From the NCBI GenBank assembly GCA_937980645.1, contig CALJPQ010000009.1, forward strand, positions 54,018 through 118,017: a stretch of 64,000 nucleotides of DNA, in the 5' to 3' direction. A program made the position numbers and the translations under genes. The stretch is from an uncultured Saprospiraceae bacterium. Lineage in GTDB: Bacteria > Bacteroidota > Bacteroidia > Chitinophagales > Saprospiraceae. Of the stretch, positions 3,148 through 4,725 are shown one piece after another. The notes below the pieces were generated by a model. The model worked only from the letters and a program-made list of their open reading frames with translations, was not told the DNA's origin and did not search any database. Each line of letters starts with the position of its first letter. Positions within the stretch are counted from its first letter, which is position 1.

Positions 3148-4725
3148 TTACCATGGCGCCAGCAACTGGGCCTGGCTTAGTGTAGAAACCGATTGAACAA
3201 ACTCAGCATAAAGGGGCAAATCGGCCGGAGTCGCGGGGTTGTGGCCATCTTGTGTGCTGCCGGTGGTTTTCAGGTTGTAAAAGTTCTGAATGATTTGCCC
3301 TTGCTGCTCGCGGTTGAACGAATGAAAGTCTTTGCCGGCAGTTTGGGCGTCCTGTAAGCCTCGGGCGCCTCCATAAGTGTAGCCCTCTCCCCATACCTGG
3401 GCGTGAATAGCCTGCGGTATGTATATTGCGCCAGCCGTCTCGTATTGCCATACGTGAGTCAGCTCGTGCATCATGACATCTAGCGGCTCACGCCCCCAGG
3501 AGTTTATCGTGTGAAAACTCGTGTAGGCTCTACCTGAGAATGCTGGTCCAATGATCGCGAGCTCATCCACGCGCACCAGATCGAGGTGGATGGATGCCCC
3601 GAAGATACGCGAAGCAGCTGTACGCTCAGCTTCGTTCAGGGGGCGGGTGTTGAATTTGATGAAGTCCATGAGCGTTTCATACACTTCTCCGACGCCCATG
3701 ATTTCTACCACATCCACCAGGCGGGCGCCGACCCATTTCAGGAAGCTCTTCCAGGTGTCCAACTTAGCCAGTGATTTCCACCAGCTGAGTGTCCAGGGTT
3801 TGAAGGACTTAAGTCCGTGGAGTAAACCGCTGAGCAAACGGCTTATCCGTGCGGGTAGCTGAGTTATCCAGCGGCCTATTCGATGAAAGATGCCAGCTAT
3901 TTTATTTATTAGCTGGCTGCCCAACCACTTAGCGCCTTTACCGATGGCTTTTAGGCCTTTTTTGACCTTATCTCCCAGCCATTTGGCGCTTTTTTTAAGG
4001 CCTTTCCAGGCTTTTCCAAGGAAACGCCGGACGACATTGCCCTGGTTCTGTTGGGTTACGTGCGCCAGTTCGTGTGCCAGCAGGCGTTTACCCGAAGGGG
4101 TATCAGGCTGGTATTTGCCCGTGTTGAAGTAGATATCCTGGCCATGGGTGAATGCCTGGGCCTGGACGCTGTCACTCATCTGGGCGGCCTTTTCGTCAGT
4201 GTGCAGGCGCACTTGTGAAAAGTCTGCACCGATAGTGTGCTCCATTAGTGTGCGCGTTTGTGGCGGCAGAGGGGAACCGCTGCCTTTGGTGTGGGATAGG
4301 GCTTGAGCGAGGCCCAGTGGGGCGGACAGGGTATCTGTCGGGGTAGCATGGGCCGATTTCATCTGAAACGACGCTTCTTCTTCTGGCGCCTCTGCCTCGT
4401 CAGCGGCCGCAGCGGCCATTTCTGGTTCGGGTTCCAGGGCATCCTCATCCTGGTTGCTCATCGTTCGCTCTTCAGCAAAACGCTGCACAATGGGTGCTGC
4501 ACAGCATTGTGGGCAGGCGCATTGTTGGGCATGCTGAGGGGTACGCTGCATCACCTCGCCTTTTATAGCGCCTTCTCCCCTTTTGTCGGCCTCTCGCTCC
4601 AGCGCGTCGTCAGGCGTGTTCACTGCCAGATGGGATTTAGGCTGGAATAACGGGGCCTTGCTCGCATCCGTTGGCTCAGGCGGCGTGTGGGTTCGAGAAG
4701 TGATTGCTTGTTTCAGAAAAGGCAT
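3148..4725 (-). CDS. DUF4157 domain protein with cationic Trp/Lys-rich amphipathic linker and a second C-terminal HExxH (zincin-like) domain; putative eCIS payload
   Basis: DUF4157 signature: LMEHTIGADFSQVRLHTDEKAAQMSDSVQAQAFTHGQDIYFNTGKY...RLLAHELAHVTQQ. Linker: KAWKGLKKSAKWLGDKVKKGLKAIGKGAKWLG...SWWKSLAKLDTWKSFLKW. Second metal-binding-like motif: DVMMHELTHVWQYE. Confidence 0.7.
   Translation of the reverse strand: MPFLKQAITSRTHTPPEPTDASKAPLFQPKSHLAVNTPDDALEREADKRGEGAIKGEVMQRTPQHAQQCACPQCCAAPIVQRFAEERTMSNQDEDALEPEPEMAAAAADEAEAPEEEASFQMKSAHATPTDTLSAPLGLAQALSHTKGSGSPLPPQTRTLMEHTIGADFSQVRLHTDEKAAQMSDSVQAQAFTHGQDIYFNTGKYQPDTPSGKRLLAHELAHVTQQNQGNVVRRFLGKAWKGLKKSAKWLGDKVKKGLKAIGKGAKWLGSQLINKIAGIFHRIGRWITQLPARISRLLSGLLHGLKSFKPWTLSWWKSLAKLDTWKSFLKWVGARLVDVVEIMGVGEVYETLMDFIKFNTRPLNEAERTAASRIFGASIHLDLVRVDELAIIGPAFSGRAYTSFHTINSWGREPLDVMMHELTHVWQYETAGAIYIPQAIHAQVWGEGYTYGGARGLQDAQTAGKDFHSFNREQQGQIIQNFYNLKTTGSTQDGHNPATPADLPLYAEFVQSVSTLSQAQLLAPW

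Follow-up and report, generated by a model that had tools for sequence, protein, structure and literature searches.

What does an injection particle carry when the protein encoded at the end of its operon holds two zinc-peptidase signatures on either side of a Lys/Trp-rich stretch? This question is raised by 64,000 nucleotides of contig CALJPQ010000009.1 (positions 54,018 to 118,017) from an uncultured Saprospiraceae bacterium, the whole of which is referred to here as the window. It includes a complete minus-strand operon for an extracellular contractile injection system (eCIS), and the gene in question, hereafter the effector gene, is found at that operon's 3' end. A sequence-only reading had regarded its product as a putative eCIS payload in which a cationic, amphipathic segment joins two HExxH modules. 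Based upon the evidence presented below, we consider it reasonably probable (about 0.6) that the effector is an antibacterial, envelope-acting eCIS cargo toxin composed of four parts, i.e. an N-terminal region, a DUF4157 domain, a helical region and a gluzincin domain. Although eCIS are currently being engineered for protein delivery, few of their native cargos are understood. The effector gene and its parts are as follows, all on the minus strand.

3148..4725 (-): effector coding sequence, 525 aa plus stop (open reading frame list)
4273..4725 (-): N-terminal region, residues 1-151, acidic, presumed cargo-loading sequence (composition, shared motif)
4039..4272 (-): DUF4157 / eCIS_core domain, residues 152-229 (Pfam PF13699)
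3916..4023 (-): 11-residue amphipathic repeats rich in Lys, Trp and Gly, residues 235-270, net +10 (hydrophobic moment, spacing)
3670..3915 (-): conserved Trp-rich helical block, residues 271-352 (homologue alignment)
3151..3669 (-): predicted VgrG2b/Tpe-like gluzincin domain, residues 353-525 (PDB 6H56 by sequence, profile and fold)

A predicted VgrG2b/Tpe-type peptidase at the C-terminus

Both of the HExxH modules ascribed to the protein are present in its translation, HELAH at residues 218-222 (window 4060-4074) and HELTH at residues 420-424 (window 3454-3468), the latter inside the peptide DVMMHELTHVWQYE, which starts at residue 416 and had been singled out as a second zincin motif. Whether the C-terminal half truly resembles a metallopeptidase was one of the points upon which the sequence-only reading had made its proposal depend, and both a profile search and a fold comparison pointed to the same structure, that of VgrG2b (PDB 6H56). 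A single-sequence phmmer search matched 6H56 with an E of 1.2e-3 and a 24-sequence profile did so with an E of 3.6e-13 over ~130 residues, at an identity of ~23% for the C-terminal domain. An AF2 model of residues 349-525 (pLDDT 88, pTM 0.87) likewise yielded 6H56_A as its first Foldseek match (probability 1.00, TM 0.52/0.51, E 6.7e-3, 149 columns), followed by ACE, LTA4H and ZMPSTE24, all at non-significant E. Residues H420, E421, H424 and E473 are the same in all of the 24 diverse homologues compared and align with the zinc/catalytic residues H935/E936/H939/E983 of VgrG2b, which places the third zinc ligand, E473, at window 3307-3309. The C-terminal domain is accordingly annotated here as a predicted gluzincin of the VgrG2b/Tpe type with an intact H-E-x-x-H...E zinc site. 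It has a metallopeptidase fold, the opposite of what the sequence-only reading had named as grounds for refutation.

General-purpose resources were of little help with this domain. The C-terminal half gave only sub-threshold matches in Pfam and NCBIfam (BSP, DUF6782), and PADLOC returned 0 matches for the effector. Using hhalign, the first half of the domain aligned with DUF4157 at 94.5% probability (E 7.7e-8), which shows the C-terminal domain to be a further, distant relative of DUF4157. This result agrees with the remark of Wood et al. 2019 (PMC6899460) that VgrG2b-like proteins are frequently annotated as DUF4157.

The region between DUF4157 and the peptidase

The stretch preceding the peptidase had first drawn notice for its composition, and a recount left those figures unchanged. 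Residues 235-335 (window 3721-4023) contain 18 Lys, 5 Arg and 9 Trp, with 2 Asp and 0 Glu, and the two peptides reported as an internal repeat begin at residue 245 (KSAKWLGDKVKKGLKAIGKGAKWLG) and residue 314 (SWWKSLAKLDTWKSFLKW). The scan used to judge this composition covered 14,919 windows of 101 aa from 44 long open reading frames, the effector gene included. Outside the effector gene, 0 of these windows contained at least 9 Trp, at least 18 Lys or a net charge of at least +21, while the binomial probability of the segment composition was 1e-5 for the Trp count and 2e-7 for the Lys count. The Lys/Trp composition of the segment is exceptional for this genome, beyond what chance would yield. 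Its cationic amphipathic nature is also evident in this protein: its hydrophobic moment, taken over 18 residues, averages 0.49 vs. 0.21 in the remainder of the effector and reaches 0.56-0.73 over residues 229-300, the angular spectrum has its maximum at 100 degrees (i.e. alpha-helical amphipathicity), and residues 235-350 have a net charge of +17. The effector contains no stretch of transmembrane grade, its hydropathy maximum (KD19) being 1.31.

The lower GC content of the linker DNA, which had been noted as well, is real: residues 235-335 have a value of 0.50, compared with 0.58 over residues 1-230 and 0.545 over residues 340-525. Its cause is the amino acid composition. Since the drop sits at codon position 1 (0.465 vs. 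0.59-0.68 in the flanks) and the GC content of codon position 3 (GC3) is like that of the flanks (0.574 vs. 0.57-0.65), the dip can be ascribed to Lys, Trp, Ile and Leu codons. Foreign DNA as its source was ruled out by the same equality of GC3. A DNA-level repeat or recent duplication underlying the peptide repeat was looked for, and none was found.

What did not hold was the view of this stretch as a simple joining linker. The effector has 3603 homologues, and in all of the best 120 the residues corresponding to ~235-525 form a single unit, hereafter the module, in which a variable repeat interval and an indel-free Trp block precede the peptidase. In the effector, the repeats (hydrophobic moment 0.56-0.64 over residues 235-270) are of the types GAKWLGxKIWx or AIWSGLKAVGG, with W-W and G-G spacings that peak at 11 residues. 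Among the nearest homologues the repeat interval measures 37, 48, 60, 66 or 70 aa; across homologues overall it spans 35-385 aa, with a net charge of anything from -3 to +33. The block is of a different nature. Measured up to its KFNTR motif, it spans exactly 90 aa in each of 114 homologues, without any indel, it contains 6-9 Trp at a net charge of -3 to +11, and its invariant residues are W286, L290-P291, R296, P310-W311, W316, T324-W325, W331, G333, E347 and T351; W267, situated just before it, is likewise invariant. AF2 predicts helices in the block at pLDDT 75-87. An exhaustive search of 1.84 billion representatives with an 85-aa profile of the block matched 108 proteins, and wherever a full-length match fell in a complete protein, the peptidase domain followed directly. 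The block is obligately coupled to the peptidase domain. Given its fixed length, its invariant Trp residues and this constant coupling, we view the conserved feature as a folded helical domain, rich in Trp, that partners the peptidase. To judge from the homologues, the strong positive charge is lineage-specific, and the Trp residues are the conserved element.

The block also carries a tape-measure-like 'W-I-T-x-L-P-x-R' motif, for which the form common to the block and tape measure proteins (TMPs) is 'F.R...W[IF]T.LP.R[IV]..L'. Weaker, multi-stretch matches of the block profile (E 1e-9 to 1e-3, profile positions ~5-50) were found in long multi-repeat proteins, and PF10145/TMP_3 was present in 5 of the 10 that were tested. 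Similarly, a whole-module profile weakly matched FtbJ (E 3e-4) and a Gp14, and a tblastn search with a repeat-rich homologue gave weak phage matches, every one listed lying in a tape measure gene, from at least 5 phage lineages. The Lys/Trp segment of the window itself had 0 tblastn matches among 50,697 phage records. The likeness is presumably that of a shared short motif rather than family membership, because the size and the predicted transmembrane helices of the TMP-related effectors Tme and Sle1 are missing here.

N-terminal region and DUF4157 core

Residues 1-151 have a net charge of -11, are of low complexity and are probably disordered. They include the motif FQPK..VNTP.DA.E.EAD and a CxxC cluster, and the motif is common to the neighboring DUF4157 effector, with which our effector has 36% identity over 213 aa (E 9e-30) before the two diverge. 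At residues 69-75 (window 4501-4521), and in homologues as well, the CxxC-type Cys cluster is followed by '[IV]QR' (here CACPQCC...IVQR). Deletions in Cgo1 and Cgo2, the cargos of AlgoCIS, indicate that their shared disordered N-terminal domain is needed for loading into the tube lumen and that DUF4157 is dispensable (preprint 10.64898/2026.05.27.728243). By analogy, residues 1-151 are most likely the loading signal for the tube lumen.

The DUF4157 module with HELAH, as recognized earlier, was recovered as a PF13699 match of 121 bits (cut-off 22; E 2.4e-35), and the core is predicted to be zincin-like. This match, together with the place of the gene at the 3' end of an operon that includes eCIS core genes, sustains the candidacy of the protein as an eCIS payload.

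Homologues in other settings

The homologues fall into at least ~45 clusters at 50% identity and occur in genomes labelled as Acidobacteriota (Thermoanaerobaculia, Bryobacterales), Bacteroidota, Cyanobacteria, Planctomycetota, Actinomycetota and Tepidiformaceae. Elsewhere, they are encoded behind CIS_TMP/AAA genes, often inside arrays of DUF4157 genes. In two Bryobacterales loci (L001, L003) and the P0066 contig, the homologous DUF4157 effector gene instead lies between two Baseplate_J-like genes and not behind a tape measure gene. The module was also found behind RTX calcium-binding repeats in Planctomycetes (L024, L025), fused behind an S8 peptidase in cyanobacteria (L002 / P0119), behind an annexin-like region, and alone. 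Since RTX- and S8-fused versions occur, the module can be considered a polymorphic toxin module that serves several export routes.

A separate architecture, in which a long series of amphipathic helical repeats of ~37 aa each precedes a peptidase of the same type, was encountered in L047, L048, L049 and L057, which are Algoriphagus spp. proteins of 679-680 aa, as well as in L041, L050 and L063. These repeats weakly match apolipophorin-III, perilipin, apolipoprotein and phasin. DUF4157 is absent from this architecture, and no eCIS genes are nearby. Relatives of ~930-1000 aa were considered as possible VgrG fusions, which was rejected, as they are long helical-repeat proteins and not spikes.

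Stand-alone paralogues are found in Saprospiraceae/Chitinophagales (among L008-L055; examples are L008:9956-10750 and L038 from Portibacter marinus). These proteins of 205-268 aa consist of the Trp block and a peptidase with its catalytic residues, without DUF4157 and without the 11-residue repeats, and their last block helix is of transmembrane-grade hydrophobicity. In at least 21 loci, the gene directly upstream of theirs encodes a LolCE-like permease of the FtsX family; in 24 loci corA lies downstream, and 16 have both neighbors. As the C-terminal domain of VgrG2b (VgrG2b C-ter) released lipoproteins from membranes (Wood et al., PMC6899460), the LolCE-adjacent paralogues provide a testable lead to the substrate class of VgrG2b-type toxins. 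It is conceivable, albeit rather unlikely in our estimation, that the Trp block and the Tpe-type peptidase constitute an ancient membrane-associated module with a native job on lipoproteins, that its toxin versions (eCIS/RTX/S8) hit the same lipoprotein/Lol step in competitors, and that the tape-measure-like motif serves to insert into or dock at the membrane. If true, this would name the substrate class of the VgrG2b/Tpe toxins, and a piece of phage tape measure would have been reused as a toxin-targeting device.

Toxic peptide, packaging device or partner domain?

The main rival to an enzyme-based toxin is that the Lys/Trp helical region is itself the toxic principle and permeabilizes membranes like an amphipathic antimicrobial peptide, the HExxH modules being accessory (maturation, chaperoning). 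The high hydrophobic moment of residues 229-300, the net charge of +17 over residues 235-350 and a Trp/Lys composition that is extreme for the genome would all suit such a peptide. However, the positive charge is not conserved in either the repeats or the block, and the fixed length, the invariant Trp residues and the confidently predicted fold are better suited to a folded domain than to a free peptide. Related helical-repeat versions do weakly match apolipophorin, perilipin and apolipoprotein models, yet in complete proteins the block never occurs without the peptidase domain. The toxicity of Cgo1 and the SalCIS cargo SalCgo1 survives HExxH mutation, whereas Cgo1 is tied to the effector family by description only and the invariant catalytic residues of the family argue for selection on catalysis. 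We consider the helical region unlikely to be the toxic principle.

The same region could alternatively be a packaging device, a tape-measure-like helix that lines the tube lumen, with a repeat number that sets the fit and with no role in the target cell. The 11-residue periodicity, with aromatic residues every 11 positions, and the shifts in copy number by ~11-aa steps among close relatives are both compatible with this, and precedents exist in the lumen-filling Cgo1/2 of AlgoCIS (PMC8894135; preprint 10.64898/2026.05.27.728243) and the published TMP-related CIS effectors Tme and Sle1 (PMC11126660, PMC13277306). AlgoCIS loading, however, needs the N-terminal domain and not the downstream regions, and the block is also found where there is no tube to fill, in RTX-fused, S8-fused and stand-alone chromosomal proteins. 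As for the matches to PF10145 tape measure proteins and FtbJ, and the listed tblastn matches that were all in tape measure genes, the individual E-values are weak and the segment from the window has no phage match. A purely packaging role seems decidedly improbable. The preferred reading of the helical region remains that of a folded Trp-rich partner of the peptidase.

A lipoprotein gene as candidate immunity determinant

The gene adjoining the effector gene, and the remainder of the locus, are listed here.

4738..5256 (-): 172-aa predicted lipoprotein, candidate immunity protein (lipobox, adjacency in five loci)
5299..6681 (-): eCIS tape measure protein, Cis14-like (PF19268 CIS_TMP, E 4.8e-112)
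6678..26678 (-): eCIS structural genes, Pvc16_N to the 1110-aa fibre-like protein (Pfam)
2140..3129 (-): second DUF4157 effector, 329 aa, PLA2-like (phospholipase A2-like) C-terminus (PF13699 E 6e-34)
1144-2106 (-): 320-aa membrane protein (same order in L087, L083)
1-1121 (-): S8 peptidase gene, runs off the left window end (same order in L087; missing in L083)

The predicted lipoprotein has the lipobox ..LPSSC and conserved Cys residues in KDTCN and C.HPG. In L087 and L083, a homologue is encoded directly upstream of the module gene (52% identity in the case of L083), and in L004 and L005 directly downstream of it. The adjacency is seen in 5 loci, including the window, and its order is switched among them. 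L083 is a Thermoanaerobaculia (Acidobacteriota) metagenome-assembled genome (MAG), and L004 and L005 are Bacteroidota MAGs. A word-based search returned 3 close relatives only and the family is rare. Genes that remain neighbors in distant lineages although their order has switched are a typical sign of effector-immunity pairs, and for this reason we consider the lipoprotein a candidate immunity protein. The immunity proteins of VgrG2b and Tpe1 are small and periplasm-facing, and some are lipoproteins with conserved Cys residues (PMC6899460). If its role is confirmed, the candidate would mark the window eCIS as antibacterial.

The eCIS operon and its surroundings

The operon runs from Pvc16_N through a 248-aa protein, the sheath, two gp19 tubes, CIS_tube, VgrG, PAAR and gp25 to a 2073-aa baseplate protein, a 951-aa Cis12-like protein, the 1110-aa fibre-like protein and CIS_TMP, and continues with the 172-aa lipoprotein, the effector, the second DUF4157 effector, the 320-aa membrane protein and the S8 peptidase. 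The sheath matches those of Anabaena tCIS (7B5H, E 7e-134) and AlgoCIS (7ADZ, E 6e-132), while the 951-aa protein matches All3315 and Alg12 (Alg12 E 1e-92; SalCis12 E 1e-23). By these comparisons, the window eCIS is closest to AlgoCIS and Anabaena tCIS. The host is a diderm, as it encodes BamA and SurA. In the closest relative contig (L087, 83% identity), the gene order is the same and a Cis15-like AAA+ gene comes directly after the S8 gene. In L083, where the S8 gene is missing, the Cis15-like AAA+ gene is found between the second effector gene and the membrane-protein gene, while a HepT/MNT toxin-antitoxin pair is inserted between both effector genes (L083:2782-3586).

The second effector resembles PLA2G12 (group XII secretory phospholipase A2; E 2.6e-5), a match below the Pfam curated cut-off. 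Its C-terminus is Cys-rich with a CDLHDECY motif, and the protein had 0 PDB sequence matches. Near the module gene of another homologous locus, L084, peptidoglycan-directed CHAP/PG_binding proteins are encoded.

A few further features of the locus were recorded in passing. The fibre-like gene, 6678-10010 (-), contains a 108-bp (36-aa) tandem repeat at 8890-9235, with 3.2 copies at 98% identity, made of ANQTDLD... units with low GC and a strong skew. An AraC-family regulator is encoded at 26919-27275 (-), just upstream of the eCIS operon start, and a HerA-like ATPase (PF05872, E 1e-175) at 28399-30003 (+), on the opposite strand near the operon.

Proposed mechanism

From the domain identities, the conserved catalytic residues, the operon context and the lipoprotein adjacency, we infer how the effector might be loaded, which cell and compartment it might reach, how it could dock there, what it could cleave and how the producer might be spared. 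Firstly, the effector would be held in the tube lumen, largely unfolded or extended, via its N-terminal region, by analogy with AlgoCIS. Sheath contraction would then expel it into the envelope of a neighboring Gram negative (diderm) cell, where the amphipathic Trp-rich helices would hold the peptidase at the membrane/periplasm interface. There, the peptidase would presumably cleave envelope proteins, possibly lipoproteins as has been proposed for VgrG2b, which would result in envelope damage. Lastly, the producer and its kin would be protected by the adjacent, periplasm-facing 172-aa lipoprotein. An antibacterial theme is further supported by the PLA2-like co-effector, the CHAP/PG_binding proteins in L084 and the diderm host.

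Several points weigh against this proposal. The Foldseek E to 6H56 is modest (6.7e-3), and a Foldseek search with the whole 296-aa module found nothing significant in the PDB or BFVD, 6H56 being recovered from the model of the C-terminal domain only. The tape-measure similarity spans just ~35-45 residues of helical, compositionally biased sequence. Both Cgo1 (PMC8894135; preprint 10.64898/2026.05.27.728243) and SalCgo1 (PMC13266070) keep their toxicity in E. coli when HExxH is mutated, and consequently the peptidase may not be the toxic principle; moreover, AlgoCIS particles killed 0 of the bacteria tested (PMC8894135; preprint 10.64898/2026.05.27.728243). The lipoprotein matches nothing in Pfam, the PDB or PADLOC, where no known immunity family was detected, and many homologous loci lack the lipoprotein or an obvious immunity gene (L001, L003, L007, L081, L084, L085). 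Lastly, the 64-kb window contains no Cis15-type AAA+ gene. In L087 this gene comes after the S8 gene, with which the window ends, and the Cis15-type ATPase is probably encoded just past the left window edge.

It is very improbable that the target is instead eukaryotic, with action in the host cytosol, as was first proposed for VgrG2b (microtubule network), and a lipoprotein unrelated to immunity: several eCIS do act on eukaryotic cells, VgrG2b has also been reported as a trans-kingdom effector and many homologous loci are without an immunity candidate, but the adjacency of an exported lipoprotein gene is conserved whatever the order, related loci have peptidoglycan-directed neighbors (L084), the chromosomal paralogues adjoin LolCE-like genes in bacteria, and periplasmic toxicity has been shown for VgrG2b C-ter and Tpe1 (PMC6899460) as well as for SalCgo2 (PMC13266070).

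With an antibacterial, envelope-acting cargo as the favored interpretation, a widespread eCIS cargo family can now be tied to a solved and experimentally tested toxin family from type VI secretion systems (T6SS). The Trp-rich helical domain that always accompanies the peptidase offers a handle on this cargo family, as does the candidate immunity lipoprotein, and the findings might also account for the HExxH-independent toxicity of Cgo1 and SalCgo1.

Comparison with known systems

The closest functional precedent is found in the T6SS. VgrG2b C-ter and Tpe1 (ACIAD0053) are antibacterial toxins that act in the periplasm (Wood et al. 2019, PMC6899460), and the C-terminal domain of VgrG2b, our top fold match, is homologous to that of the effector (profile E 3.6e-13). 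Common to both are the HExxH plus distal Glu zinc site, the distant DUF4157 link, a small, envelope-targeted and Cys-conserved protein encoded alongside (the immunity proteins PA0261/Tpi1 in the case of VgrG2b/Tpe1, the candidate lipoprotein in the window) and a phospholipase-type effector in the locus. Unlike VgrG2b, which is a T6SS VgrG-spike fusion, the effector has an eCIS context, a putative N-terminal loading region and DUF4157. It also has the obligate Trp-rich block and 11-mer repeats before the peptidase, for which no counterpart has been reported in VgrG2b, and its candidate immunity protein lacks detectable similarity to known proteins.

Among eCIS cargos, the obvious parallel is Cgo1 of AlgoCIS (ALPR1_12695, UniProt A3HTB0, 498 aa), which by its published description consists of a disordered N-terminal domain, a central DUF4157 and a predicted metalloprotease C-terminal domain with a second HExxH. 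As with the effector gene, the Cgo1 gene is described as located behind a tape measure gene and as accompanied by that of a second DUF4157 cargo, with the N-terminal domain common to both cargos. The window eCIS is near AlgoCIS, as the sheath comparison indicates, and the likeness to Cgo1 itself is one of published architecture: Cgo1 was not among the best 120 of the 3603 homologues, and a homologue search with an Algoriphagus-type C-terminal domain found no named Cgo1. Two proteins were considered as Cgo1 and set aside, P0066 (498 aa) due to its metagenome origin, and the Algoriphagus 679-aa protein from the GTDB scan, which is a different protein from other species. Cgo1 differs from the effector in that its toxicity is HExxH-independent and no immunity gene has been reported (PMC8894135; preprint 10.64898/2026.05.27.728243). 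The SalCIS cargos SalCgo1 and SalCgo2 of Salmonella enterica subsp. salamae have been reported to resemble VgrG2b 6H56, and SalCgo1 contains DUF4157 (PMC13266070). SalCgo2 is toxic in the periplasm only, in an HExxH-dependent manner (PMC13266070). Unlike the window eCIS, SalCIS belongs to another lineage, as reflected in the Cis12 matches given above, and the description of SalCgo1/2 mentions no Trp-rich block or repeats and no immunity protein was found (PMC13266070).

The sequence-only reading had regarded the domain combination as uncharacterized, which these precedents contradict in part. VgrG2b/Tpe1 have been solved and tested, and Cgo1 and SalCgo1/2 are published eCIS cargos with DUF4157 and/or a VgrG2b-like HExxH. 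In the literature that was searched, there appears to be no description of the obligate Trp block, the 11-mer repeats or the lipoprotein partner.

Two further groups bear comparison for the helical region. The effector shares an amphipathic helix and net positive charge with cationic amphipathic membrane-active peptides, although this charge is not conserved in its homologues. With Tme of S. davawensis (PMC11126660) and Sle1/Sle2 of S. lividans (PMC13277306), it shares a DUF4157 link, a possible remote tape-measure similarity and an exchangeable functional domain at the C-terminus. The effector is 525 aa, with no predicted transmembrane helix and with ~35-45 TMP-like residues plus short repeats, whereas Tme and Sle1 are large proteins for which transmembrane helices are predicted and in which the TMP-like regions are long. 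The C-terminal domain differs as well, being a predicted peptidase in the effector, an endonuclease in Tme, and different again in Sle1.

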